In this document: positions 9,306 through 51,730 of the stretch, piece by piece
Position numbering within the stretch: position 1 is the stretch's first letter
Layout of the letters: each line of letters begins with the position of its first letter
Origin: Mobula hypostoma
Taxonomy: Eukaryota
Assembly: GCF_963921235.1 (NCBI RefSeq)
Contig: NC_086097.1
Span: 10,044,001 to 10,108,000, forward strand
Reading direction: 5' to 3'
Length of the DNA stretch: 64,000 nucleotides
Translations under genes and position numbers: made by a program
The notes under the pieces: generated by a model
The model's input: only the letters and a program-made list of their open reading frames with translations
The model's database searches: none
Told to the model about the DNA's origin: nothing

Positions 9306-10209
9306 ATGAGTGTGAGGGCGGTTTGTTGTTCTCGGTGTCGGATGTGGGAGGCCCTGGAGTCTCCAGGCCTCCCGGACGTCCACATCTGTGCCAGGTGCGC
9401 CGAGATGCAGCTCCTAAGGGACCACGTTAGGGAACTGGAGCTGCAGCTCGATGACCTTTGTCTGGTCAGGGAGAGTGAGAAGGTGATAGAGAGGAGTTAC
9501 AGGCAGGTGGTCACACCGGGGCCACGGGAGGCAGACAAGTGGGTCACGGTTAGGAAGGGGAAGGGGAAGAGTCAGGTAATAGAGAGTACCCCTGTGGCTG
9601 TGCCCCTTGACAATAAATACTCCTGTTTGAGTACTGTTGGGGGGGGACAGCTTACCTGGGGGAAGCAACAGTGACCGTGCCTCCGGCACAGAGTCTGGCC
9701 CTATAGCTCAGAAGCGTAGTGAAAGGAAGAGGAGGGCAGCTGTAATAGGGGACTCGATAGTAAAGGGGTCAGATAGGCGATTCTGTGGATGCAGTCCAGA
9801 GACCGGGATGGTAGTTTGCCTCCCTGGTGCCAGGGTCCGGGATATTTCTGATGATATCCTGAAGTGGGAGGGTGAGGAGCCAGAGGTCGTGGTACATATA
9901 GGTACCAATGACATAGGTAGGAAAAGGGAAGAGGTCCTGAAAGGAGAATATAGGGAGTTAGGAAGGGAGTTGAGAAAAAGGACCGCAAAGGTAGTAATCT
10001 CGGGATTACTGCCTGTGCCATGCGACAGTGAGAGTAGGAATGCAATGAGGTGGAGGATAAATGCGTGGCTGAGGGATTGGAGCAGGGGGCAGGGATTCAA
10101 GTTTTTGGATCATTGGGACTTCTTTTGGCGCAGGTGTGACCTGTACAAAAAGGATGGATTACACTTGAATCCCAGGGGGACCAATATCCTGGTTTGCGAG
10201 GGCTACTGA
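9306..10209 (+). pseudogene. CR1 ORF1 (CxxC...CxxC finger, leucine zipper, SGNH/GDSL esterase); frameshift at the G-run near 9640
   Basis: CSRCRMW...HICARC, LRDHVRELELQLDDL; esterase blocks VIGDSIV, VVVHIGTND, DGLHLN. Confidence 0.9.
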
Positions 10210-10449
10210 GGTGACTTTAGACTAGAATGGTTGGGGGGTGGGAATCAAATTAAAGAGACTAGGAGAGGGGAGGTTAGTTCAGAACGGGGGGATGGGAACC
10301 AGTGCAGAGAAACAAAGGGGTGTAAAATGAGGGTAGAAGCAAAAAGTAGTAGGGTGAAAAGTAAAAGTTGCAGGCCGGCAACTCCAGGGCAAAAATCAAA
10401 AAGGGCCACTTTTCAACATAATTGTATGAGGGCTAAGAGTGTTGTAAAA

Positions 10450-13258
10450 GCAAGCCCGAAGGCTTTGTGTGTCAATGCAAGGAGCATTCGTAACAAGGTG
10501 GATGAATTAAAAGTGCAGATTGTTATTAATGAATATGATATAGTTGGGATCACAGAGACATGGCTCCAGGGTGACCAAGGATGGGAGCTCAACGTTCATG
10601 GATATTCAATATTCAGGAGGGATAGACATGAAAGAAAAGGAGGTGGAGTAGCATTGCTGGTTAGAGAGGAGATTAACGCAATAGAAAGGAAGGACATAAG
10701 CCGGGAAGATGTGGAATCGATATGGGTAGAGCTGCATAACACTAAGGGGCAGAAAACACTGGTGGGAGTTGTGTACAGGCCACCTAACAGTAGTAGTGAG
10801 GTTGAGGATGGTATTAAACAGGAAATTAGAAATGTGTGCAATAAAGGAACAGCAGTTATAATGGGTGACTTCAATCTACATGTAGATTGGGTGAACCAAA
10901 TTGGTAAGGGTGCTGAGGAAGAGGATTTCTTGGAATGTATGCGGGATGGTTTTTTGAACCAACATGTGGAGGAACCGACTAGAGAGTGGGCCATTCTAGA
11001 CTGGGTATTGAGGAATGAGGAAGGGTTAATTAGCAATCTTGCTGTGAGAGGCCCCTTGGGTAAGAGTGACTATAATATGGTGGAATTCTTCATTAAGATG
11101 GAGAGTGACAAAGTTAATTCAGAAACAAAGGTTCTGAACTTTAAAAAAGGGTAACTTTGAAGGTATGAGACGTGAATTAGCTAAGATAGACTGGCAAATG
11201 ACATTTAAAGGATTGACGGTGGATATGCAATGGCAAGCATTTAAAGATCGCATGGATGAACTACAACAATTGTTCATCCCAGTTTGGCAAAAGAATAAAT
11301 CAAGGAAGGTGGTGTACCTGTGGCTGACAAGGGAAATTAGGGATAGTATCAATTCCAAAGAAGAAGCATACAAACAGAAAAAGTGGCTCATCTGAGGACT
11401 GGGAGAAATTCAGAGTCCAGCAGAGGAGGACAAAGGGCTTAATTAGGAAGGGCAAAAGCGATTATGAGAGAAAACTGGCAAGGAACATAAAGACTGACTG
11501 TAAAAGTTTTTATAGGTATGTAAAAAGAAAAAGATTGGTTAAGACAAATATAGGTCCCCTACAGACAGAAACAGGTGAATTGATTATGGGGAGCAAGGAC
11601 ATGGCAGACCAATTGAGTAACTACTTTGGTTCTGTCTTCACTGAGGAGGACATAAATAATCTTCCGGAAATCGTAGGGGTCAGAGGGTCCAGTGAGATGG
11701 AGGAACTGAGGGAAATGCATGTTAGTAGGGAAGTGGTGTTAGGTAAATTGAAGGGATTAAAGGCAGATAAATCCCCAGGGCCAGATGGTCTGCATCCTAG
11801 AGTGCTTAAGGAAGTAGCCCAAGAAATAGTGAATGCATTAGTAATAATTTTTCAAAACTCTTTCGATTCTGGACTAGCTCCTGAGGATTGGAGGGTGGTG
11901 AATGTAACCCCACTTTTTAAAAAAGGAGGGAGAGAGAAACCGGGGAATTATGGACCGGTTAGCCTAATGTCGGTGGTGGGGAAAATGCTAGAGTCAGTTA
12001 TCAAAGATGTGATAACAGCGCATTTGGAAAGCAGTGAAATCTTCAGACAAAGTCAGCATGGATTTGTGAAAGGAAAATCATGTCTGACGAATCTCATAGA
12101 ATTTTTTAAGGATGTAACTAGTAGAGTGGATAGGGGAGAACCAGTGGATGTGGTATACTTGGATTTTCAAAAGGCTTTTGATAAGGTCCCACACAGGAGA
12201 TTAATATGCAAACTTAAAGCACACAGTATTGGGAGTAAGGTATTGATGTGGAAAGAGAATTGGTTGGCAGACAGGAAACAACGAGTGGGAATGAACGGGA
12301 CCTTTTCAGAATGGCAGGCAGTGACTAGTCGGGTACCGCAAGGCTCAGTGCTGGGACCCCAGTTGTTTACAATATATATTAATGACTTAGATGAGGGAAT
12401 TAAATGCAGCATCTCCAAGTTTGAGAATGACACAAAGCTGGGCGGCAGTGTTAGCTGTGAGGAGGATGCTAAGAGGATGCAGGGTGACTTGGATAGGTTG
12501 GGTGAGTGGGCAAATTCATGGCAGATGCAATTTAATGTGGATAAATGTGAGGTTATCCACTTTGGTGGCAAAAACAGGAAACAGATTATTATCTGAATGG
12601 TGGCCGATTAGGAAAAGGGGAGGTGCAGCGAGACCTGGGTGTCATTATACACAAGTCATTGAAAGTGGGCATGCAGGTACAGCAGGCGGTGAAAAAGGCG
12701 AATGGTATGCTGGCATTTATAGCAAGAAGATTCGAGTACAGGAGCAGGGAGGTACTACTGCAGTTGTACAAGGCCTTGGTGAGACCACACATGGAGTACT
12801 GTGTGCAGTTTTGGTCCCCTAATCTGAGGAAAGACATCCTTGCCATAGAGGGAGTACAAAGAAGGTTCACCAGATTGATTCCTGGGATGGCAGGACTTTC
12901 ATATGATGAAAGACTGGATCAACTAGGCTTATACTCTCTGGAATTTAGAAGATTGAGGGCAGAAGTTATTGAAACGTATAAAATCCTAAAGGGATTGGAC
13001 AGGCTAGATGCAGGAAGATTGTTCCTGATGTTGGGGAAGTCCAGAATGAGGGGTCACAGTTTGAGGATAAAGGGGAAGCCTTTTAGGACCGAGATTAGGA
13101 AAAACTTCTTCACACAGAGAGTGGTGAATCTGTGGAATTCTCTGCCACAGGAAACAGTTGAGGCCAGTTCATTGGCTATATTTAAGAAGGAGTTAGATAT
13201 GGCCCTTGTGGCTAAAGGGATCAGGGGGTATGGGGGGAAGGCTGGTACAGGGTTCTGA
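10450..13258 (+). pseudogene. CR1 ORF2 (APE endonuclease + reverse transcriptase), several frameshifts
   Basis: [57 protein letters not shown] in place of FADD, RPHMEY; pieces 10231-11154, 11165-11395, 11535-12596, 12623-13258. Confidence 0.92.
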
Positions 13259-20289: not shown

Positions 20290-20970
20290 TGAAAGTCAAA
20301 GTTTGAAGGAACTTTTGTTACTGAAGTATATACATATATGTCACCATATATAACTCTGAGATTCCCTTTCTTGCTGGCAATCCCTGTAACTGCAATAGGC
20401 ACACTAGAATCAATCAAAATACCCAACAGTCTGGACAAAAAACCTATGTGCAAAAAAAAAACACCAACTGTGCAAGTACAAAAAGAAAAAGAAAATAATG
20501 ATAAATATTCAGAACATGAGATGAAGTGTTCTTGAAAGTGAGTTCAGTTCAGTGGGAAAAGTTCTGTGATGAATTGAGTGAAGTTATTCTCTCTGGTTCA
20601 AGAGCCTGAGAGCTGAGGAGTAACAACTGTTCCTGAACCTGGAGATGTGGGTCCTGAGGCCCCTGTGCTTTTTTCCTGATGACAGCAGCAAGGAGAGACC
20701 ATGACCTGGGTGGTGGGTGTTATTGATGATGGATGCTGCTTGCCAGCGACTGCACTCGTATAGATGTGCTCAATGGTGTGGAGGTCTTCACCTGTGATGG
20801 ACTGGGCTGTATCCAATATTCTTTGTAGGCTTTTCCTTTCAGGAGTACTGGTGTTTCTATGCCAGGCTGTGATGCAACAGCCAATATGGTCTCCAACACA
20901 TATCTTTAGAAGTTTGTCAGAGGTACTAGATGGCAAGTCAAATCTTCACAAATTTCTTAGAAAGTAGAGG
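20290..20970 (-). mobile_element. Rex1/Babar LINE 3' fragment (second tail fragment at 19835-20210)
   Basis: GCCITAWHRNTSTPERKSLQRILDTAQSITG; (tttgaac)-type tail. Confidence 0.85.
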
Positions 20971-30212: not shown

Positions 30213-30780
30213 TACATACAGTAATCTATAATATTCACATCTCCCAAACTTGCAACCACCCACCAGGATAAAGATAGCAGGTGAAAAGGGGAACTACCAG
30301 CTGAACATTTCCCTTCTGGGTATTTACCATCCATTACCATCTCGATTTTGAAATCCTGCCACTGTTCGTTTGTTCCTACTGAGTCTAAAATCTGGAATTC
30401 TCCAGTTAATAGAACTCTAGGAGTTCCTTCAACAGGGATCTCAGCATCAGAATTAGGTTTAATATGGAAGTGGTTCAAAATGGTGGCTCAGGGCCCATTT
30501 AACAAGGGCAGTTAGAGATGGGCTATAAACACTGGCACTGCCAAGAGCAACCACACTCCGAAAAGAAAAATGTGATCTAAGTACTATCTCTGATGAACAC
30601 ATACCACTGTGATTTTTTTTAAAGTTTAATTCAATTCAAGTTTAATTGTCATTTGACAATACATGAATGCTCATGAGTACAGCCAAACAAGACAGTGTTC
30701 TCTGGGGCCAAGGTGCAAATCACAGTGCCTGTAGTCACACAGCACAAAGCACACATAGCACCTACAAGATAGCAAGCACA

Positions 30781-32650
30781 TATTGGTATTAACTGGGTTA
30801 ACTGTCTGGACACACACCTCTGCTGATGGCCCCAGTGGCTCCTCCCACAGAGTCCTGTATAAAGTTGTTTCGCCTTGCCCCTCCCCCTCACTCCGGGGGC
30901 AGACACTCACCGTGGAGGTCGTATTGTACAACGAATAAAAGCCTTTCGGTATTTTACCTAACCTCAATCTTTTGGAGTTATTGAAGGGGCGGCAGTTGGC
31001 ATGGTGTTGGGTGGGACGTGCGGGTTGATGTGTGTGTGTGTGTGTGTGTGTGTGTGGTCAGTAGTGGGGTATGTGACGTATCCCTACAAAACTGGGGATT
31101 TACGACAGTAATTGGTGGGAGGGGCCCATCATACTTCATTGTCACGCTTTTCAGGTGGCTCTGGAAGTCGAGCCCCAATAGCACAGGGGCACACAATTGA
31201 GGCATAACCAGTAACGTAAAGTCTTGATAGTGCCCTGCACCACTAGCGTCGCTACACAACCCCCCGGATGTCTGTTGTATGCGACCCAGAAGTCATGGTG
31301 ACCCTCTGACTTACCGGCCGTATCACGAGTCCGCAATGCTGCACCGTGTCCGGGTGGATAAAACTCTCCATGCTGCCCGTGTCAAACAGGCAGCTTGTCC
31401 TGCGCCCCTCCACCAGGATGTCCATCATCGACCTTGCGAGCCGGTGGGGAGCGCTTTGGTCGAGGGTCACGGAGGCCACGGTTTAGCCGCTGCCTTGGTC
31501 CGGCGCGGTGAGGTGCCCCGTGAGTACCTGTTAGTCGTAGGCAGTGGGAGGTGGCGCCGACGAAGATGGCAGCCCCTATGTCTCGCACGTGGTGGCGGCG
31601 TGCAGGGAAAACGGCGGCACCCATGTTTCGCATGCGGCGCTGCTCGATCCCACTTGCAGTTTGGACTTACAGACCTTCGTAAAGTGGCCCTTCTTTCCGC
31701 AGCTGGAGCAGGTAACTTCTCAGGCCGAGCAGCGTTTCCAAGAGTGCTTCTCGCGTCCGCAGAAGTAGCACTTCGCGGACTCGCGACTGGTGGCAGCCGA
31801 GGTCGATTCACTGGCGGGTTGCGGGGTCTGCGGCGCCCACGAGGCTATCGGGGGGGATCGCGTGCCTGGAGAGCCTCAGAGTTACGCAGAGTGGTCTCCA
31901 GCATGTCGGCCTGCTCGATCGCCGAACTTAAGGTAAGATCGGCTTTTTCCAACAGCTGCTGGCGCACATACCCAGACCCGGTTCCCGTGACGAAGGCGTC
32001 TCTCACTAGGAGCTCTGCGTGCTGCGCCGCCGTCAGCTCCTGGCAATTGCAGGCCCGCATGAGCGTCTGTAGGGCTCAGATAAACTCAGAACTCGATTCC
32101 CCAGGCCGTTGTTGCCGTGTCGCTAAGCGGTGCCGAGCATAGATGCTGTTTATCGGTCGCAGGTATTGTACTTGGAGGGTGATCATCGCGCCGTCGTAGC
32201 TCGGCTGGTCTCTAATCAGCGAATAGACCCGTGGACTGACCCTGGAGAGTAGAACTCCACGCTTCGCTACGGGGTCAGTCGCTTTAATCTCCTCTAGGTA
32301 CGCTTCGAAGCAGGCCAGCCAGAGTTCGAAAGTGTTTCCAGCTTCAGATGTTTGCGGATCGAGGTCTAATTTGTCGGGTCTCAGTGTGTGTTCCATGCTT
32401 TAAAATGTATAGCGACTAAAATTGAAGCACCTTCAATAACTCCAAAAGACTGAGGTTAGGTAAAATACCGAAAGGCTTTTATTCGCTGTACAATACGACC
32501 TCCACGGTGAGTGTCTGCCCCCGGACTGAGAGGGAGGGGCAAGGTAAAACACCTTTATACAGGATTCTGTGGGAGGAGCCACAGGGGCAGTCAGCAGAGG
32601 GGCATGTCCAGACAGGTAACCGAGTTACAACATATATATGGTTTACCACA
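30781..32650 (-). mobile_element. Ty3/Gypsy LTR-gag-protease segment with inverted LTR copies
   Basis: Minus-strand LTR 32650-32422 (TGTGG...TTCA); gag MEHTLRPDKLDLDP; knuckles CYFCGREKHSWKRC and CSSCGKKGHFTKVC; protease LFDTGS...LLGLDF; plus-strand LTR copy 30781-30987. Confidence 0.9.
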
Positions 32651-38974: not shown

Positions 38975-39496
38975 ACAAAGGTCAAAGTAAATTTATTATC
39001 AAAGTACATATACGTCATCATAAACAACCCTAAGATTTGCTTTCTTGTGGCATACACAGTAAATAGAGAAACACAACAGAATTAATGAAAGACTGCTAAA
39101 TTGCACAAAGCACTGGTTAGATTCACCTGAATTAATGAAGTTAATGGAAGACTGCACCCAATATGTCAGACAAACAATGTGTAAAGAACAACAAAATGCA
39201 AATACAGAAAAGAAAAAAAAAGAATAAATAAGTGATAAATATCAAGAACATGTGATGAAGAGTCCTTAAAAGTGAGTTCATGGATTGTGGGAACAGTTCA
39301 GTGCTGGGGCGAGTGAGATTAAGTGAAGTTATCCCCTTTGGTTTAAGAGCCTGATGGTTGAGGGGTAGTAACTCTTCCTGAACCTGGTGGTGTGTGTCTT
39401 GAGGTTACTGTACCTTCTTCCTGATGGTAACAGTGAGAACAGAGCCTGGCCTGAATGGTGGGGGTCGTTGATGATAGATGTTGCTTTCCTGCAGCA
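38975..39496 (-). mobile_element. Rex1/Babar 3' end (left half of the host of the Copia insertion)
   Basis: RKATSIINDPHHSGQALFSLLPSGRRY...YPSTIRLLN; continues at 50486. Confidence 0.88.
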
Positions 39497-39692
39497 TATT
39501 GAGTTCTGTTTATTTGGGCTACGCAAGTGTTTATTAGGGATGCGCGCTTTCCCTGTTATGCACATGCGCACCGGGGGAATCAGTGGCATTATGGGGATAA
39601 AAGGTGGTGGCCCTCGTGTATTGAACTGAGACATTGAAAGTAAAGTTGTTTAAACACAAGAAAAACTTGTCTTTGTCGTTTGAGCATTAACA
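39497..39692 (+). repeat. 5' LTR of the Copia element
   Basis: TATTGAG...TTAACA, similar to 50284-50485; followed by gtggt (possible PBS remnant). Confidence 0.88.
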
Positions 39693-39949
39693 GTGGTTTT
39701 GAATTATAGGATCTCACCAGATTTTGACGAGAGCAACCTTTACGAAAGCACGCAAAATTAAATTGGAATATAGACTCATGTTATAGAGCTTGAGAAGAAG
39801 AAGCAGGCTCTTGCAGTTGTACTGTCATTTTCCGGAAGATTGGGAGAGACTGGGATGGGAATTTCGGTTGAGGACTTGAACAAAGATGACGGTATGAATA
39901 TACCAATAAATACACTTGGACTCTATTTTTCCGAAGGAAGGAAAGGATC

Positions 39950-40765
39950 AGCAGATGGAGTTTAACCCAGTTAAGTGTGTGGTGGTTTATCTTGGTGGGT
40001 CAAATATAATGGTAGAATATAGCATTAATGGCAAGACTCTTGGCAGTGCGGAGGATCAGAGGGATCTTGGGGTCCAAGTCCATAGGACACTCAAAGCTGC
40101 TACGCAGGTTGACTTTGTGGTTAAGAAGGCATACGGTGCATTGGACTTCATCAGTCATCGGATTGAGTTTAGGAGCCGAGGGGTAATGATGTAGCTATAT
40201 AGGACCCTGGTCAGACCCCCACTTGGAGCACTGTGCTCAGTTCCGGTCGCCTCACTATAGGAAGGACGTAGAAACCATAGAAAGGATGCAGAGGAAATTT
40301 ACAAAGATGTTGCCTGCATTGGGGAGCATGCCTTATGAGAATAGGTTGAGTGAACTCGGCCTTTTCTCCTTGGAGCGATCGGAGGATCAGATGTGACCTG
40401 ATAGAGGTGTTCAACATAATGAGAGGCATTGATCGTGTGGATAGTCAGAGGCTTTTCCCCAAGGCTGAAATGGCTAGCACGAGAGGGCACAGTTTTAAGG
40501 TGCTTGCAAGTAGGTACAGAGGAGATATCAGGGGTAAGTTTTTTACGCAGAGTGGTAAGTGCGTGGAAAGGGCTGCTGGCGGCAGTGGTGGAGGTGGCAA
40601 TGATAGGGTCTTTTAAGAGACTCCTGGATGGCTACATGGAACGTAGAAAAATAGAGGGCTATGGGTAAAGCCTAGGTAGTTCTAAGGTAGGGACGTGTTC
40701 GACACAGCTTTGTGGGCCGAAGGGCCTGTACTGTGCTGTAGGTTTTCTATGTTTCTGTGTTTCTG
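39950..40765 (+). mobile_element. CR1 3' fragment inserted in Copia gag
   Basis: QMEFNPVKC, RDLGVQV, HLEHCAQF; (ttctgtgt)n tail; gag resumes after it. Confidence 0.9.
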
Positions 40766-43029
40766 TTAATGAGGCATATTCAAAGTTTGACAAAGTTTAC
40801 AGAGACGATTCTAAAAATATGGTTGATTATATTACTGATTTTGAACAAAAGTTCAGTTGCATGTGTAAATATAAAATGGAAATTCCTGATGCTGTGTAAG
40901 CTTTTAAATTGTTTGGATACTGCATAAAGGGTGGACAATTTGTCTTAACTGCATGTGCAGAACTTACACTTACTTCAAAGAAATCGACACTGAAGAAGAT
41001 TTTTGCAGAAAAGGCTGCTAGGACAACAGTCGGAATTAGTTTGAGTCCGGAAGTGGCACCCTTCACTGAGCAGAAACAAGAGTACAGCGAGCCAAGATCC
41101 CAGAGGGACCAGACATTACCTGGCACTAATCTAATTAGCAAATACGGCAGGAGATCCAAAAGTGAGGTTTGTCGAAGTATTTACCATTGGGCAGGAAATT
41201 GTTCACACAGAACCAAGCATGTTAGGCTAACTGAAAAAATAACAAATTTAAAAATTTAGTAGAGTGTCATATCACATTGTTTGCAAAGGAATCACTTACT
41301 AATGCAGGGATATCTGAGGCAGAGATTTTGATGATAGAATCTCTAGGGTCTGCTGCTATGACATGCACACACCCAGTGCGTGGAGAAAAACGACTTGAAA
41401 GCTATGTAAGTGAACCAAAAAATGAAATGCAGAAACTGGTGAACAAAACTAGCAACAGAGTATTGAAACTTGGAGATGGAAATATTAAACATCCCACCAA
41501 AAGTGTGAAAATCCCTGCAAAAGTAGGGCAGGCAAAATGTTACATTGAAATGGAGGTAGTACCAGTGAACATTCCATTACTCTTGAGTAAAACTCCCCTA
41601 AAGAAAGCAGGAGCATTACCGGATATGGAGAATGACCAAGTAATAACATTACAGCAATCAGTGTCTCTTGAGTTCACCAGCTCTGGACATTACTGTGTGA
41701 ACACTCTAGATAAAGACACTACTGAGAACCAATATGAGAATGAAGTACTAACTGTCACAGAAAACATGACCATAGATGAGAAATGCAAAGTGTTGCTCAA
41801 ACTTCATAAGCAGTTTGGACACACTTCAACTGAGAGAGTTCAGAAACTGCTCAGGAGTTCAGGAAACAAAGATGCAGATTATTTTTTTCCATTCTAAAGC
41901 AGATAATTGACAGCTGTGAGATGTGCCAAAGGTTTGGAAACCAAAGCCCAAGCTGGTTGGTCTGCCACTAGAATCTAAAAATAATGAGACAGTAGCCATA
42001 GACCTACATGAACTGGAGCAAGGAGCGTGGTATCTCCATATCATTGATGAGTTCACACATTTCAGTGCCAGTAGTAAAGAAAAGCAATGGCTGTGATTGG
42101 AAAACAGCCCTGGACTGGGTCCTTATAGCGACGATATCATGCACAATGTACATGGTTATGGCCCATATCAATTGGTGTTTGGCCAGAATCCAGACCTTCC
42201 CTCTGTACTGGTTGACAGATTACCTGCTCTAGAGGGTACTATAAGGAGTGAGTGGGTTGGAAAACGTATTTCAGCATTGCATGCATCAAGGAAGGCTTTC
42301 AGTGAAGCAGAGTGTTCAGAGAGAATTCCAAGAGCTCTGAGGACACAGGTCCATCCTACAAATGGCAAATACGATGCAGAGGACAAAGTCTATTACAAAA
42401 GTGTTGATTGTACAGAATGGAAAGGTCCTGGAGTTGTCATTGGTTAGGATGGTGCTGTGGGATTCATGAGGTATGGAGATAGATATGAGAGAGTGCATCA
42501 TTCCAGACTACGTAAAGCACAAAATGAAGACGATCAGAACTCTATGAAGAATGACATAAAAAAATGAGAAAGCACTTACCCGGTTCGTTGTCACATTGTC
42601 ACGTAGCAGAGACAGGGGTGAGGGAAGTGCAGCTAAGGACCCAACAGAGTTGCTCAACAATTGCCTAGACAGTGCTGAAGAGATTGCATTGGATCCTTAG
42701 TAGTGTTGGCTGAAGAGAGTGAAGTTGGGACTCAAAAGACTTGCCTGAACAGAAATCATCACAAGTACAAAGACAACATGGAAGTTTCAGTTTTAAAACA
42801 GGACAAACTGTGAGATTTATAGACAAATACACTGGTATCTCATACAAAACTGAAGCCTTAGGGTGAGCAGGCAAAGCCACAAGGAGAAACAAAAGTTGGT
42901 ACAACTTGAATTACCTGGAACCAATCACAGTTGCTGGCACTGCAGGGTTATTCCACATGTCGTGTGTAGACAGACTTTATATGGAATCAATTACAAATCA
43001 GGTTGGAACATCTGCAAAACACACCAGTC

Positions 43030-43982
43030 AGGATGACGCCGGCAAACAACGATACCTCGGGCGACATTTCCAGATAACAAATCTCTCGAATTATTTCACA
43101 TTTCTCTAAGGCTTCTGCTTGTTCTTTTTGTCTTGTTAGTGTTTCGGAAGCCTGCGACATACAGTTTGGATCTTGATCGAAGCTTCTGGTGCCATGCTGT
43201 GTCCGTTGAGCAGCCTCGTAGAAATTAGAGACAGGGAACCAAAAAAAGACCATGAACACAGCTGACTCACGGAAACAAACACAAAACAGGACATGTGGGC
43301 ATGTATGACTCCATCTCGAAGCGGCAAGGAAGATTGAAGCATCGAGGTGAATGTGGAGGGGGACAGCGATGGCTCCCAACGGTGACAGTCAACAGCCAGG
43401 TCGATGTGTTGGGCCCTGGATCTGTGGCTTTAGGATATGGGTCAGCAGTCACCCTTTACAGAAGGAATGAGTTCATACGGCTGCTCTCCTCATGTGCAAA
43501 CAAAAAGTTGCTTCCGAAATTCTGGGAATTATGTGATTATTTGTCTGTACCTTATATTGGTTCCCTTCAGATTTTTAGTGTTTTCTTTCTTGTGGCCGAT
43601 TGGTGGGTGGGTGGGAGAACTGTTGATTTTTTTTGTCTGTAATGGTGGGGGGGGGCGGTTTGGGAGTTTCGTGCCACTTAGATGCTCTTTCTGTGAGTGA
43701 GGAGGTCAGGGTATATTATTGTCACTGTTCTTTTCTGCGAATGAGAGGGTCGGGTCTGTTACTGTTGCTGTTTTTCGCTGTGGGGTTGGGGGATTTGGGG
43801 GTAAGCGAGTTGTTTCTTTTCTTTTTCATGCCAGGGGATGGGAGTTGATGTCTTTCTTTTTATCCACACCCATGGTCTTTCTGTATTTTAGTTGGTATCT
43901 GGAAAAGACAAATATCAGGGTTGTATTTTACATGCATACTTTGACAATAAAATCAAGCTCTGAATCTTTTTTGAAACTTTGA
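43030..43982 (+). mobile_element. Non-coding non-autonomous element with Rex1-type tail, inserted between Copia IN and RT
   Basis: Starts gatgacgccggc; ends tactttgacaataaa...ttgaaactttga; Copia pol resumes after it. Confidence 0.55.
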
Positions 43983-44895
43983 GAAATGTAAAGATGAAGA
44001 TGTCCTAATAACAAAGGATTTATCATTTGAACCGACAAAATAGGATGAAATCAGAAGTTGGAGAAATAGTGGAGTGTTTGAGGAAGCCAGAAACATTGGC
44101 CAAAAGACAGTGTCTCCAAGATGGGTGCGCACACTGAAAGAAACCCCAACAGTAATTATACCTGAAGCAGCCAGGTGGCTAGGGGTTTTGAGGAACTGAA
44201 CCTAAAAGAACTCCGAAAAGACTTGCCAACATGTGCATCAGAGTCTCTCCGACTACTTCTCTCGGTGATGTGTCAAAAGTATTAGCAACCCCGTGGCATG
44301 GACTTAAAATCTGCATTCTTACAAGGAACGGAGCCGTCATATGACAGTTACATTAAATCCCTCAGCCCTCAGCTGAAGTCAGTCTTTCAGATTGGACGGG
44401 AGGAACTTGACAGATTCTGCTATGTAGGGATAGACATCCTTGCTGTTGACAGAACAGTACATCAAGAAAGCTACATCAGGAATCTGCAGACAATCCACAT
44501 GGATTCCTCACTTACCAGACAACCAGATACACCTTCCAGTGAAGCTGAAGCGGAGCGATTTAGGTCAAAGATAGGTCTGATTCTATGGATCGTAAGACAG
44601 GGCAGACCTGAATTCATGGTTGCTGCCTGCAACTTGGCATCCAGCACAGAAAATTCCACAGTACAAGCTTTACATCAGGCAAACAAGATAGTGCACAGAA
44701 TTCAATCTGAAAACATAGTCTTAAAGTTTCAACAACTTGGAAAGTATGGCTCACTGAGGCTCGTTCTCTTCAGTGATGCCTCACTTCAAAATCATCTGGA
44801 AGAAGGTACTCAAGTGGGACATTTTATTGTACCAACGAGAGAAGAGGGAAGATTTTTACCAATCCATTAGCAATCAAAAAAGGATTGGGAGAGTT

Positions 44896-45545
44896 ATTAG
44901 ATTAGATTAGATTAGATTCAACTTTATTGTCATTGTGCCGAGTACAGATACAAAGCCAATGAAATTCATTTAGCATCGTACCAGCAATGCAAAGAATGGT
45001 GTTATTTACAAAATAACTGCGAATAAAAAAAGTGCTACAGCACACAAATATAAAAGTACTGAGACAGTACAATACGGATGTAATACTGCTTAGCACTGTG
45101 ATGAGAGGTTCAGCAGTGTCACAGCCTCAGGGAAGAAGCTCTTCCTGGGCCTGCTGGTGTGGGAGCAGAGGCTCCTGTAGTGCCTACCGAATGGAAGGAG
45201 AGTAAAAGGTCCATGGTTAGGGTGAGATGCATCCTTGATAATGCTTTTCACCCTGCCCAGGCAGCGTTTATGGTAGATGTTCTCAATGGTGGGCAATTGG
45301 GTGCCGAGAATCCGCTGGGCAGTTTTCACCACACGCTGGAGTGCTTTGTGGTCTGATATGGGACAATTGCCATACCACACTGAGATGCAGTTGGTGAGTA
45401 TGCTCTCAATGGTACGGTGGTAAAAGTTCGTCAGTATCCTGGGACAGAGGTGAGCTTTCTTCATGCTCCGCAGGAAATAAAGGCGCTGTTGTGCCTTTTT
45501 GCTCAGGATGGAGGAGTTCAGGGACCAGGTGAGATCCTCGGAAGT
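44896..45545 (-). mobile_element. Rex1/Babar 3' fragment inserted in Copia RNase H
   Basis: SEDLTWSLN..KKAQQRLYFLR, RTIESILTNCISVWYG; (tctaa)n tail. Confidence 0.92.
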
Positions 45546-45787
45546 ATGGAAGGCTGGCAGGAGAAACCTGTGCAATATCTGAAAGCATTGCTAATTCTCT
45601 TTTTCTGGCCACACTCTATTCTGAGCTTTTCCATGGTGACCGAATGAAGAACAATCTACAAATAACTTGTGTCACAGACAACTACTCTTTTTGATGCTAT
45701 CAAATCCAACAAATGAGTTACAGAGGAGAAGCTTTGTCTAGAGATAAGCAGCATCAAAGAACTTGTCCAAGCACAGAAAATTCATCC

Positions 45788-46060
45788 AACACAGGCAAAA
45801 TGCTGGAGGAACTCAGCAGGCCAGGCAGCATCTATGGAAAAGAGTAAACAGTGCAACAGAGCTGGGAAGTTGATTGGTGAAAGAGATACAGGGCAGGAGA
45901 AGCTGGAATCTGATAGGAGAGGACAGAAGGCCATGGACGAAAGAAAAGTGGGAGGAGAATTAGAGGGAGGTAATAGGGAGTTAAGGAGATAAGATATGAG
46001 AGGGAAATAGGGATTGGAATGGTGAAGGGGGGGAAACATTACATGAAGTTGGAGAAAATC
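45788..46060 (-). mobile_element. Penelope-like 3' UTR fragment inserted in Copia RNase H
   Basis: aaatgctggaggaactcagcaggccaggcagcatctatgg terminal motif. Confidence 0.75.
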
Positions 46061-47298
46061 AGGTTAATCACTTGCTGTGGTCAATTACAAAGGAATAACT
46101 AGCTGACTGTCTCAGAAAGAAGAGAGTGCCAGCTTTTGTGCAGTTAAAGGCACTGAGTGAAGGCATTTGGTACCTTAATAATTATATTAACATCAAGGGT
46201 TGGAAATAATTCTCATATACTAATGACATTTAAATTGTCTTGAAATTTTTAAAATTTTTTAAATATGTACATAAAAGAGGTAGCATTAGAGATTGTGGCC
46301 GCATTAGAAATGACTTGTCAAAAGTCATTGTACTCTGGCATGGTGCCAGAGGACTGGAAAATTGCAAATGTTATTCCACTCTTTAAAAAGTAGGAAGGCA
46401 GCAGAAAGGAAATTATAAACCAGTTAGCCTGACCTCAGTGGTTGGAAAGATGTTACCCGAGTCAATTGTTAAAGATGAGTACTTGGTTTCACAGGACAAG
46501 ACAGTACAAAGTCAACATGGTTTCCTTCAGGGAAATCCTGCCTGACGAACCTGTTGGAATTCTTTGAGGAGATTACAAGTAGGATAGGTAAAGAGGATGT
46601 AGTGGATGTTGCATATTTGGACTTCTAGAAGGCCTTTGACAAGGTACCACACGTGAGGCTGCTTACTAAGTTAAGAGGTATTACAGGAAAGTTACTTACA
46701 TGGTTAGAGGCTGATAGGTAGGAAGCAGGCGAGTGGGAATAAAAGGATCTTTTCTGGTTGGCTGCCAGTGAACAGTGGTGTTCCACAGGGGTCAGTGTTG
46801 AGACCACTTCTTTTTATGCTGTATATAAATGATTTAGATGATGGAATAGATGGCTTTGTTGCCAAGTTTGCAGATGATACTTGGTGGAGGGGCAGGTAGT
46901 GTTGAGGAAACATGTAGGATGCAGAAGGACTTAGACAGATTAGGAGAATGGGCAAGAAAGTGGCAAATAAAATACAATTTTGGAAAAAGGATGGTCATGC
47001 ACTTTGCCAGTAGAAATAAATGTGCAGATTATTTTCTAAATAGGGAGAAAATCCAGGAATCTGAGATGCAGAGGGACTTGGGAGTCCTTGTGCAGAACAC
47101 CCTAAAGGTTAACTTGCAGATTGAGTCAGTGGTGAGGAAGGCAAATGTCATGTTAGCATTCATTTCAAGAAATCTAGAATACAAGAGCAAGGATATGATG
47201 CTAACAACAGGAATTCTGCAGATGCTGGAAATTCAAGCAACACACATCAAAGTTGCTGGTGAACGCAGCAGGCCAAGCAGCATCTATAGGAAGAGGCG

Positions 47299-47336
47299 CA
47301 GTCGACGTTTCAGGCCGAGACCCTTCGTCAGGACTA
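47299..47336 (-). ncRNA. Minimal type I hammerhead ribozyme motif
   Basis: TAGTC-CTGACGA-AGG(gtctcgg)CCT-GAAAC-GTC-GACTG: intact core, stem I and stem II pairing. Confidence 0.8.
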
Positions 47337-49420
47337 ACTGAAGGAAGAGTGAGTAAGGGATTTGAAAGCTGGAGGGGGAGGGGGAGATGTAAAATGATAG
47401 GAGAAGACAGGAGGGGGAGGGATAGAGCCGAGAGCTGGACAGGTGATAGGCAGAAGGGGATACGAGAGGATCATGGGACAGGAGGTCCGGGAAGAAAGAC
47501 GGGGGGGGGGGTGACCCAGAGGATGGGCAAGAGGTATATTCAGAGGGACAGAGGGAGAAAAAGGAGAGTGAGAGAAAGAATGTGTGCATAAAAGAGAGTA
47601 ACAGATGGGGTACGAGGGGGAGGTGGGGCCTAGCGGAAGTTAGAGAAGTCAATGTTCATGCCATCAGGTTGGAGGCTACCCATACGGAATATAAGGTGTT
47701 GTTCCTCCAACCTGAGTGTGGCTTCATCTTTACAGTAGAGGAGGCCGTGGATAGACATGTCAGAATGGGAATGGGATGTGGAATTAAAATGTGTGGCCAC
47801 TGGGAGATCCTGCTTTCTCTGGCGGACAGAGCGTAGATGTTCAGCAAAGCGGTCTCCCAGTCTGCGTCGGGTCTCACCAATATATAAAAGGCCACATCGG
47901 GAGCACCGGACACAGTATATCACCCCAGTCGACTCACAGGTGAAGTGATGCCTCACCTGGAAGGACTGTTTGGGGCCCTGAATGGTGGTAAGGGAGGAAG
48001 TGTAAGGGCATGTGTAGCACTTGTTCTGCTTACACGGATAAGTGCCAGGAGGGAGATCAGTGGGGAGGGATGTGGGGGACGAATGGACAAGGGAGTTGTG
48101 TAGGGAGCGATCCCTGCGGAATGCAGAGAGAGGGGGAGGGAAAGATATGCTTAGTGGTGGGATCCCGTTGGAGGTGGCGGAAGTTACGGAGAATAATATG
48201 TTGGACCCGGAGGCTGGTGGGGTGGTAGGTGAGGACCAGGGGAACCCTATTCCTAGTGGGGTGGTGGGAGGATGGAGTGAGAGCAGATGTACGTGAAATG
48301 GGGGAGATGCGTTTAAGAGCAGAGTTGATAGTGGAGGAAGGGAAGCCCCTTTCTTTAAAAAATGAAGACATCTCCCTCGTCCTAGAATGAAAAGCCTCAT
48401 CCTGAGAGCAGATGCGGCGGAGACGGAGGAATTGCGAGAAGGGGATGGCGTTTTTGCAAGAGACAGGGTGAGAAGAGGAATAGTCCAGATAGCTGTGAGA
48501 GTCAGTAGGCTTATAGTAGACATCAGTGGATAAACTGTCTCCAGAGACAGAGACAGAAAGATCTAGAAAGGGGAGGGAGGTGTCGGAAATGGACCAGGTA
48601 AACTTGAGGGCAGGGTGAAAGTTGGAGGCAAAGTTAATAAAGTCAACGAGTTCTGCATGCGTGCAGGAAGCAGCGCCAATGCAGTCGTCGATGTAGCGAA
48701 GGAAAAGTGGGGGACAGATACCAGAATAGGCACGGAACATAGATTGTTCCACAAACCCAACAAAAAGGCAGGCATAGCTAGGACCCATACGGGTGCCCAT
48801 AGCTACACCTTTAGTTTGGAGGAAATGGGAGGAGCAAAAGGAGAAATTATTAAGAGTAAGGACTTTTTATACATTGGTGAGACCCGACGCAGACTGGGAG
48901 ACCGCTTTGCTGAACATCTACGCTCTGTCCACCAGAGAAAGCAGGATCTCCCAGTGGCCACACATTTTAATTCCACATCCCATTCCCATTCTGACATGTC
49001 TATCCACGGCCTCCTCTACTGTAAAGATGAAGCCACACTCAGGTTGGAGGAACAACACCTTATATTCCGTATGGGTAGCCTCCAACCTGATGGCATGAAT
49101 ATTGACTTCTCTAACTTCCGCTAGGCCCCACCTCCCCCTCGTACCCCATCTGTTACTCTTTTTTATGCACACATTCTTTCTCTCACTCTCCTTTTTCTCC
49201 CTCTGTCCCTCTGAATATACCTCTTGCCCATCCTCTGGGTCACCCCCCCGCCCCCCGTCTTTCTTCCCGGACCTCCTGTCCCATGATCCTCTCGTATCCC
49301 CTTCTGCCTATCACCTTTCCAGCTCTCGGCTCCATCCCTCCCCCTCCTGTCTTCTCCTATCATTTTGCATCTCCCCCTCCCCCTCCAGCTTTCAAATCCC
49401 TTACTCACTCTTCCTTCAGT

Positions 49421-49458
49421 TAGTCCTGACGAAGGGTCTCGGCCTGAAACGTCGACTG
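49421..49458 (+). ncRNA. Minimal type I hammerhead ribozyme motif
   Basis: Identical to 47299-47336, in the inverted arm. Confidence 0.8.
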
Positions 49459-49550
49459 CGCCTCTTCCTATAGATGCTGCTTGGCCTGCTGCGTTCACCA
49501 GCAACTTTGAAGGATATGATGCTGAGCCTTTATAAGGCACTGGTGAGGCC

Positions 49551-49944
49551 TGTTGTGGATAAGTCTCAGGAGCAGTACACAGAACAAATCAGGCCGACTC
49601 AGAGAATTGTTTCAGACTAAAGGACTTTAATTATAAATGACATCACCGAGATCACTGCACCTAAGACCGGTGTTTAGGGGCTCTGCTTAGCTTTCAGACA
49701 TGCTTCATTATATAGACACAGCATACGTAAATAAAAGCACTTAACAAGTGCATTGCCTGACCTTGAACTTAGAACTAGATTGCAACAAACAAGAACATTG
49801 CGTGACTTTGAACCTTGAACTAAATCACAACATTTTGGTTGCATTCCAGCCGGCGCCACAACCTCAGTTCTTGAAGGACTTTAGCTAAATCTCAGCAGCA
49901 TTCACAGGCGATTAGGTTAACCCCTACATATCCAAAGAGTTACA
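49551..49944 (-). mobile_element. Solo LTR (394 bp) inserted in CR1
   Basis: TGTTG...TTACA termini, 5-bp TSD aggcc (49546-50 / 49945-49); CR1 rejoins on removal; orientation tentative. Confidence 0.85.
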
Positions 49945-50283
49945 AGGCCTCACTTTGAGTATTGTGTACAGTTTTGGGCTCCTCATCTTAGAAGAGATGT
50001 GCTGGCATTGGAGAGGGTCCAGAGGAGGCTCACATGGATGATTCCAGGAATGAAATGATTATCATATGAGGAACATTTGATGGCTCTGGGTCTGTACTCG
50101 CTGGAATTTTGAAAGATGAGGGAGGATCTCATTGAAACCTTTCGAATATTGAAAGGCCTAGACAGAGTAGATGTGGAGGAGATTAAAAAAAAGGATCAAC
50201 CATGATTGAGTGGTGGATCTCGATGGGCCAGATGGCCTAATTCTGCTCCTATGTCTTATGGTCTTATAGAAATTAAGGGAGAT

Positions 50284-50485
50284 TGTTGAGTTCTGTTCAT
50301 TTGGGCTATGTATTTAGTAAGTATTTAGTAGCCATCCCACATCCCCTGATATGCACATGCAATCCGGGTGGAATGGGGTGTTTGCGGGGATAAAAGGTGG
50401 CGGCCCTCTGGTATTGAATGGAGACGTTGAAAGTAAAGTTGTTTAAATGAAAGAAAAACTTGTCTTTATTGTTTGAGCATTAACA
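50284..50485 (+). repeat. 3' LTR of the Copia element
   Basis: TGTTGAG...TTAACA preceded by purine-rich aattaagggagat (PPT-like). Confidence 0.88.
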
Positions 50486-51730
50486 TGACAGAACTCCCTG
50501 TACATGTGCTCAGTGGTATGGTGGGTACCTACGATGGACTGGACTGTATACTTTTTGCAGCAATTCCTATTCAAGTGCATTGGTACCTTCATTCCAGTCC
50601 ATGATGCAACCAGTCAATAAACTCTCCACACACATCCACAAATGTTTGTCAAAGTTTTAGATGTCATACCAAATCTTCACCAACTTCTAAGAGCTGGAGG
50701 TGCTGCCATGCTTTCGTCGTAATTGCTCTTACGTGCTGGTCTCAGGACAGCTGATAACATCAGGGAATTTAAAGCTGCTAACCTTCTCCACCTGTGTTCC
50801 TCCAATGAGTGTTGGCTCATGAACTTCTGGTTTCCTCCTCCTGAAGTCGATAATCATCTCCTTGGTCTTGCTGAGATTGAATGAAATGTCGTTGTTGTGG
50901 CTCCACTCAGCCAGATATCTAATCTCTCTCCTCTCTGCTGATTCATCATCACCTATGATTCAGTCAACAACAGCGGTGTCACCAGCAAACTTAAATATGG
51001 CTTTGGAGCTGTGCTTAGCCTCACAGTCATAAGTAGAAAGTGAATAGAGCAGGGAGCTAAGAGCTCAGTCCTGTGGTGCACATATGTTGATGGAGATCTT
51101 GGAGGAGATGTTGTTGCCAATCCAAGCAGACTGCGGTCTGCAGGTGAGGAAACTGAGGATGCAGTTGAATGAGGAGGTATTGAGGTCAATATCTAGAAGC
51201 TTGTTGATTAGTCTGGAGGGAAGGATAGGGTTGAGTGCTGAGATGCAGTTCAGACATTTCCGTCATCTCAGGGTTGAAGTGGCATCTGCTGTGGACCTGT
51301 TGTGCCAGTTGACAAAAGGAACAGATCAAAGTCACTTCTCAGGCAGAAGTTGATATATTTCATCAGTAACCTCTCAAAGCACTTCATCAGAGAGGTTGGC
51401 ATATTCTTCTTAAACACCAGTATAATTAAAGCCTTTTTAAAACAAGGGGGTGACTTAGGCTGCTGAAGTGAGAGATTAAGTATATCTGTGAACACTCCAG
51501 CCAGTTGAATAACACAAGTCTTTAATACTCAGCCAGGTACCCCATTGGGTCCAGATGATTTCCATGCGTTCATCCTTCTGAAGGATGCTGTCACATCAAC
51601 TTCAAAGCGTGAAATCACAGAGACACCAGCGACTGTGGGAGGTTGTGAAGGTTCCGCCATGTTTTGACGGTCAAAATGAGCTAGAAGGCATTGAGCTCAT
51701 CTGCGAGCAAAGCCTTGTTGTCAACTTGCA
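50486..51730 (-). mobile_element. Rex1/Babar RT (right half of the host of the Copia insertion)
   Basis: [34 protein letters not shown]-like region; joins 39496. Confidence 0.85.

Follow-up and report, generated by a model that had tools for sequence, protein, structure and literature searches.

A dead Ty1/Copia copy, likely of the Zeco1-like fish branch of GalEa, beneath nested insertions in the genome of Mobula hypostoma

Metazoan GalEa retrotransposons of the Ty1/Copia superfamily have a published size under 5 kb, and the described systems closest to the element analysed here are Zeco1 of Danio rerio and Olco1 of Oryzias latipes, from the subclade that Piednoel et al. (2013; PMC3587641) call 'Zeco1-like'. 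For cartilaginous fishes, the relevant parts of Klai et al. 2025 (PMC11889832) report eight chondrichthyan genomes screened, with Copia in five of them and a classification in two, GalEa in both cases. Additional file 3 of that work lists 719 Copia copies and seven GalEa clusters for Scyliorhinus canicula and 210 copies and three GalEa clusters for Carcharodon carcharias; for Pristis pectinata, the sole batoid screened, the same parts give no Copia by LTRharvest under a filter of 80% similarity between long terminal repeats (LTRs). The present analysis concerns a stretch of 64,000 nucleotides of Mobula hypostoma (assembly GCF_963921235.1, contig NC_086097.1, positions 10,044,001 to 10,108,000, forward strand; hereafter the window), in which positions 39497 to 50485 are occupied by a broken Ty1/Copia provirus. 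With good confidence, it is regarded as a single dead copy, likely of the Zeco1-like fish branch of GalEa, that entered an older long interspersed nuclear element (LINE) by one integration and was later split by five inserts.

A preliminary description of the locus had treated Copia as scarce in vertebrates, which is only partly true, as Additional file 3 of PMC11889832 gives copy numbers in the thousands for snakes and in the hundreds for two sharks. Its implied surprise at GalEa in a cartilaginous fish is not supported, such elements being already published in the same file. At most, a GalEa family in rays and its transfer from bony fishes would be new; no ray Copia family was reported by title in the literature on Copia in elasmobranchs, Chondrichthyes, Mobula or transfer involving cartilaginous fishes.

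Coding remains and affiliation of the copy

The comparison by tblastn of two intact polyproteins with the window mapped gag, protease, integrase, reverse transcriptase (RT) and RNase H (RH) in that order on the plus strand, with E values from 1e-104 to 1e-5. The integrase lies upstream of RT-RNase H, which is the Copia order, and the domain succession previously read under the nested inserts is thus borne out. All the pieces were recognised by tblastn. They begin with a first gag piece that contains a stop codon (39702..39951, 51-54% identity), followed by a second gag piece with a decayed zinc knuckle (40765..41260) and a protease region whose catalytic motif is without its aspartate (41244..41710). 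The integrase (41790..42550) retains HHCC, the first aspartate and the C-terminal WKGPGVVIG, and its core carries a deletion, also seen by DNA comparison; it continues into the integrase-RT linker with AGKAT..WYN (42551..43030). The first part of the RT, with VARGFEE and DLKSAF, extends from 43996 to 44357 and stops at a deletion of about 80 codons (again also from DNA comparison), whereas the RT end and the RNase H start with SDAS form an unbroken frame (44358..44888; tblastn to 44882, searches and tree). A middle RNase H piece (45554..45775, match 45554-45782) and the RNase H end with ADCL plus the end of pol (46054..46179, match 46048-46179) complete the series.

When the 194-residue frame at 44286-44870 was compared with longer proteins, 704 candidates yielded three matches, namely a pair of intact polyproteins with lengths of 1460 and 1437 amino acids (E 2e-47) and a gene model of Mobula birostris. 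With the RT/RNase H part of one intact relative (P0002) as query, 872 of 8000 scored proteins matched at E <= 0.001; among the 120 matches listed, 11 carried an organism name (four teleosts, four molluscs, two tunicates and one pycnogonid), and this is the range of GalEa hosts given in PMC3587641. Five polyproteins, P0001, P0002, P0004 (in a cluster with Pimephales and Cyprinus), P0014 (Xiphophorus) and P0005 (Coilia), are collinear with the window copy over its whole length, with 46-52% identity in RT/RNase H and up to 75% in the C-terminal integrase frame. These are single open frames of 1126-1460 amino acids, and a single large gag-pol open reading frame is the rule in the intact relatives, whereas that of the window copy is broken and the copy sits on a long branch. 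The intact relatives match Pfam rve and then RVT_2, with PF07727 at 102-108 bits.

All the motifs quoted in the preliminary description (VARGFEE, AGKAT..WYN, WKGPGVVIG and others) are present in the window. Among 96 full-length relatives, the VARGFEE type was found in 68, AGK..WYN in 69 and WxGPGxV in 72, so they are common but not universal. Among the full-length relatives of the fish group, DTAC, DIK[SA]AF and HVDD occur in 19 of 19, ADC[LF]TK in 18 and SDAS in 12, and the integrase spacing of P0002 is D(54)D(35)E. The set tabulated for Zeco1 and Olco1 in Additional file 5 of PMC5445492 is the one carried by these fish-group relatives. The window copy has DLKSAF, and DIKSAF was found in one of 77 non-fish full-length relatives. 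The polypurine tract (PPT) noticed earlier was located at 50276..50282 on the plus strand as AGGGAGA, the same as that listed for Zeco1 in Additional file 5 of PMC5445492. An 11-base GalEa primer motif is present in 15 of 54 related metagenome loci, many of the rest being partial, and the published primer 12-mer is exact in six of the 14 related loci listed. In six related loci (L001, L002, L003, L016, L044 and L052) the gag start codon directly follows the primer site, with no 5' leader; in six others gag starts 20-143 bases beyond it.

A maximum-likelihood tree of 169 unchanged RT/RNase H residues of the window copy with 72 chosen relatives placed it in a clade of 26 rows with support 100/99. 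The named members or cluster mates of this clade are all teleosts (Coilia, Xiphophorus, Sardina, Metynnis, Pimephales, Cyprinus, Cirrhinus, Cyprinodon and Poecilia); its remaining rows could include cartilaginous fishes. When nesting within the teleost elements was compared with a sister position to them, neither was favoured (approximately unbiased test, p 0.26; 13 against 10 rows).

Several results weigh against this reading of the copy. None of the ten Copia-derived window frames matched a relevant Pfam family, and an RT of the RVT_2 type is assigned to the copy because its frames align to relatives that have Pfam matches. In a tree of the protease frame with 36 relatives the copy joined the same group with a support of 92/95 (unstarred), and its branches are long in both trees (0.98 for RT/RNase H and 0.56 for protease). 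The trees comprise the window frames and their chosen relatives, with no labelled GalEa reference and no Copia outgroup from outside GalEa. The similarity between its LTR and the upstream sequence of 12 related loci did not exceed that of shuffles. The published primer motif was not found after the 5' LTR with up to two mismatches allowed, so the tRNA-Met primer-binding site that is used to recognise metazoan GalEa is absent from the window copy, its 11-base motif being known from the related loci. Other searches were empty: no relative was among the 43 pattern matches of an IMG/VR scan with the alignment of relatives or among the 27 matches of a first metagenome scan with one protein, Rfam had no match in the window, and a PDB search with a relative returned general integrase chains only.

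On balance, motifs and host range make GalEa membership of the window copy likely, short of formal RT/RNase H monophyly; it is inferred rather than formally shown because the trees hold no labelled GalEa or other Copia clade. Motifs and PPT, together with size and relatives, speak well for the earlier assignment to GalEa and allow it to be narrowed to the Zeco1-like fish branch. The copy is recorded as a GalEa-like remnant, not as a formal member, and the absence of the primer site is read as a lesion. The best surviving alternative, a Copia of another marine clade (Hydra, CoMol or CoMar), is improbable. It can draw on the composition of the trees, on the presence of Hydra in teleosts too and on the fact that KARLVA and ADxxTK are general features, widespread in Copia. 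Yet it has to account for close relatives with the exact motif set of Zeco1 and Olco1, their integrase spacing and their primer motif, for a PPT identical to that of Zeco1 and for relatives from teleosts, molluscs and tunicates, which is the GalEa range; moreover, both chondrichthyan sets classified in the pertinent parts of Klai et al. are GalEa.

Lesions and loss of mobility

The GalEa-like copy is dead, having lost its primer site, the aspartate of its protease, two residues of the integrase core and the YxDD region. The losses of the primer site and of the protease aspartate are additions to the preliminary description. The deletions in the integrase core (near 42070) and in the RT (near 44360) comprise about 80 codons each, as the preliminary description had perceived without sizing them; the first removes two of the three DDE residues and the second the YxDD region, and in a DNA comparison with related loci each of them shows as a gap of about 240 bases. 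The motif set of metazoan GalEa comprises DT(G/A)C, D(49-54)D(35)E, KARLVA, D[IV]KxAF/Y, [HY]VDD, [TS]RPD[IV], SDAS and ADCLTK, and the closest intact relatives carry it. The window copy still has DLKSAF, SDAS and ADCL; KARLVA and TRPD have decayed, and DTAC, DDE and HVDD are affected by deletions. The coding region is also broken by several stops and frame breaks. At 39693..39701 on the plus strand, where the tRNA primer-binding site belongs, the site is missing and gag codons begin nearly at once, within about 10 bases of where the 5' LTR stops. The window copy is incapable of moving by itself, and copying in trans is unlikely because the primer site is missing.

In size the two large deletions hardly differ, and a 7-base tandem repeat lies at the RT junction, probably by chance. 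A targeted inactivation of the catalytic cores was considered and rejected, since one 80-codon deletion covers at least one of the 11 catalytic positions by chance in 42% of cases and two deletions both do so in 18%. Several contigs of other organisms leave the match exactly at the sites of the two deletions, or where insert 1 or insert 3 lies, and continue with other sequence, with orthologs and paralogs indistinguishable. The deletion and insert lesions are thus not family-wide, because these contigs stop matching there and run on.

Slightly less credit than to another marine clade is given to the proposal that the copy represents a non-autonomous subfamily, devoid of integrase and RT cores and spread via intact partners, or an element with a tRNA-free priming site. 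That both big deletions strike catalytic cores with near-equal size is suggestive, and fungal GalEa have no primer site; but contigs X10-13 and X12-23 lose the match at the two deletion junctions and continue, the loss of catalytic residues has the chance frequencies given above, and the copy is riddled with stops and frame breaks. As for tRNA-free priming, what follows the 5' LTR can be read as gag codons and by eye shows no palindrome, and the fungal traits (a hairpin replacing the primer site; KSRLVI, QTDD and CQPEA) were not found, the motifs of the copy and its relatives being of the metazoan type.

For the ordinary decayed provirus that is preferred here, the parent would have been a single-ORF element of about 4.8 kb, to judge from the relatives. 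Following textbook Copia biology, its RNA may have been packaged in Gag particles. Reverse transcription would have been primed by host initiator-Met tRNA and carried out by the RT/RNase H, and a DDE integrase would have inserted the product with a 5-bp staggered cut, as the relatives and Copia biology predict. Neutral decay probably followed insertion.

Insertion site, nested inserts and age

Two direct repeats of about 200 bp had been noticed at the ends of the element, and they were delimited on the plus strand as a 5' LTR of 196 bp (39497..39692) and a 3' LTR of 202 bp (50284..50485). The right one has TG...CA ends, while the left one starts with TA. Their global alignment comprises 194 columns with 34 differences (17 transitions and 17 transversions, 17.5%), which corresponds to a Kimura two-parameter distance (K2P) of 0.20 +/- 0.04 that may be overstated, as the mismatches are concentrated in the poorly aligned middle part. 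A lenient search found no third LTR copy in the 64 kb window. Apart from the TA start, the copy displays the direct LTRs, the geometry of a 5-bp target-site duplication (TSD) and the PPT before the 3' LTR that are expected of Copia.

The element lies within an older LINE fragment on the minus strand, presumably Rex1/L2-like, whose left half (39183..39491) aligns collinearly to the LINE copies located near 20.5k, 26.2k and 8.2k of the window and whose right half (50491..50726) is likewise collinear with other LINE copies there. The flanks 39183-39492 and 50487-50692 align to the adjoining segments 20456-20747 and 20748-20961 of another LINE copy. The proposed TSD consists of CAGCA (39492..39496) and TGACA (50486..50490), placed on the plus strand by flank alignment; only two of the five letters are equal, a mismatch that counts against the reading, and the letters alone are no evidence for a duplication. 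The earlier claim of a degenerate TSD is supported by flank geometry instead: with the flanks aligned separately and the 5-mers left out, the gap is exactly five bases in the LINE copy at about 26 kb, about four in that at about 20 kb and about 13, an unreliable value, in that at about 8 kb, and the uninterrupted LINE copies hold a single similar 5-mer at the insertion site. Because the flanks are abutting halves with a 5-base duplication, one older LINE fragment was split by one integration, and the Copia copy is a single integration, not two solo LTRs. That the repeats were independent solo LTRs of a common family flanking unrelated debris, as their 17.5% difference and the TSD letters might suggest, is considered refuted by these collinear LINE flanks, by the internal domains, all of which lie inside the pair of repeats, ordered and on a single strand, by the absence of another LTR copy in the 64 kb and by the PPT adjoining the right repeat, and the preliminary description's single old provirus withstands this objection.

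Of the span of 10,989 bp, five later inserts, with approximate edges, take up about 6,690 bp and leave 4,300 bp; together with the two deletions of about 240 bp (about 0.5 kb), and with LTRs as short as 196-202 bp, this fits a compact size under 5 kb. Insert 1, in gag (39952..40764, plus strand), is a 3' fragment of an abundant LINE that we take to be of CR1 type. Insert 2, in the integrase-RT linker (43030..43975, plus strand, 5' edge approximate), is non-coding with a LINE-like 3' tail; the depth of its body is low like that of the Copia element and its tail is about six times deeper. Two inserts interrupt RNase H: insert 3 (44889..45545, minus strand) is a LINE 3' fragment with a microsatellite tail (Pfam PF09004, E 2e-19), and insert 4 (45776..46053, strand not assigned) is a short piece of very high copy number related to the Penelope-like family. 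Insert 5, between the end of pol and the PPT (46274..50268, plus strand), is a LINE RT fragment that houses two younger inserts. One of them is a Penelope-like element (47203..49509, minus strand) with RT and GIY-YIG-like frames, inverted arms and a 14-bp target duplication; its arms differ by a K2P of 0.011, and it is the youngest layer of the stack. The name Penelope is our presumption, Pfam giving RVT_1 and a sub-threshold GIY-YIG match. The other is a 394-bp solo LTR of another family (49551..49944, strand not assigned) with TG...CA ends and a perfect 5-bp target duplication, which contains a 45-bp tandem pair.

Elsewhere in the window, an older copy related to the Penelope-like element is found at 58.9-60.5 kb, and a LINE that is close to complete, its ORF1-like and RT frames both being long (RVT_1 match), at 9631-13258. 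On the minus strand, at 30774-32643, a Gypsy-like gag and aspartyl-protease fragment lies between two LTR-like arms of 224 nt, which are inverted, not direct, and 88% complementary.

Part of the segment 40760-43110 of the Copia locus was present in 20 of 24 listed sequencing runs. No RNA run was among those listed with a match, and one possible RNA run contained 28% of the query words, which tells nothing in either direction. Contigs from four runs were compared with 39200-47180 at 80% likeness, the small-share organisms D, F, G and H being set aside. Those of organism A were identical to the window; organism B gave five contigs with a pooled difference of 1.6%, two of them spanning insert junctions; and organism E gave one 1.3 kb contig, 12.7% different, that runs from the linker into insert 2. 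Depth at position 43021 was single-copy in all four runs. Because of the linker-insert 2 contig of organism E and this single-copy depth, all four runs likely contain orthologs of the locus. In run X1 the summed depth of Copia-only bins among the matches listed was about 660-1,800, against 14-19 for unique contigs, which is not a copy number but suggests that the family has tens of related copies. At 0.20, the LTRs are further from each other than the window is from organisms C and E (0.11-0.14), which agrees with an insertion that predates the split of species about 12% apart. An absolute date was tried with the pedigree rate of the epaulette shark given in the relevant part of PMC10587355 (7e-10 per generation) and discarded, as the resulting value of about 1.4e8 generations is implausible; relative dating alone was kept.

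Searches with the window frames gave no named elasmobranch polyprotein; the only named elasmobranch match is a piece of 50-70 residues in P0003. Over 50 residues, this Mobula birostris piece ranks first in identity among 229 aligned proteins (72%, the next 68%), though not in score, which lends weak support to a ray as host and leaves the cartilaginous fish of the preliminary description plausible. P0003 is an NCF1 isoform model that opens with about 70 residues of the RT of the window's Copia family, either an exonised fragment or an annotation artefact.

Significance and comparison with known systems

Horizontal transfer from teleosts is possible. The fuller proposal is tentative and rather doubtful: that no Copia family had been recorded in rays before this one, and that a GalEa lineage of the teleost branch passed horizontally between bony fishes and an ancestral batoid, multiplied to tens of copies and died out, leaving orthologous insertions that place the transfer before a split of species about 12% apart. 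Should the family prove to be nearer to teleost elements than is compatible with host genes, it would be a case of marine horizontal transfer in a rarely implicated group; a GalEa family in rays, if true, would slightly extend the range known from sharks, the sole screened batoid having had no Copia detected. There is neither a new mechanism nor a sign of function, and the locus serves chiefly to mark an insertion that is likely old and shared, with its stacked inserts as a relative clock for repeat waves in the genome. The copy also illustrates how old families can escape a filter of 80% LTR similarity.

Indeed, the LTR similarity of the window copy is about at the 80% limit stated in the corresponding part of Klai et al. 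The shark GalEa clusters of that work are, like the window copy, GalEa-type Copia elements in cartilaginous fish, a likeness taken from their description in Additional file 3 only. Zeco1 and Olco1 were likewise compared by published description only, and unlike them the window copy is dead, carries five nested inserts and lacks the primer site, the protease aspartate, the integrase core and YxDD. As far as the descriptions in PMC3587641 and the motif table of PMC5445492 extend, it shares with both elements the short TGT...CA LTRs, the 5-bp TSD, the PPT AGGGAGA, DxKSAF, SDAS, ADCL and a size under 5 kb, while its closest intact relatives share with them DTAC, D(54)D(35)E and HVDD.

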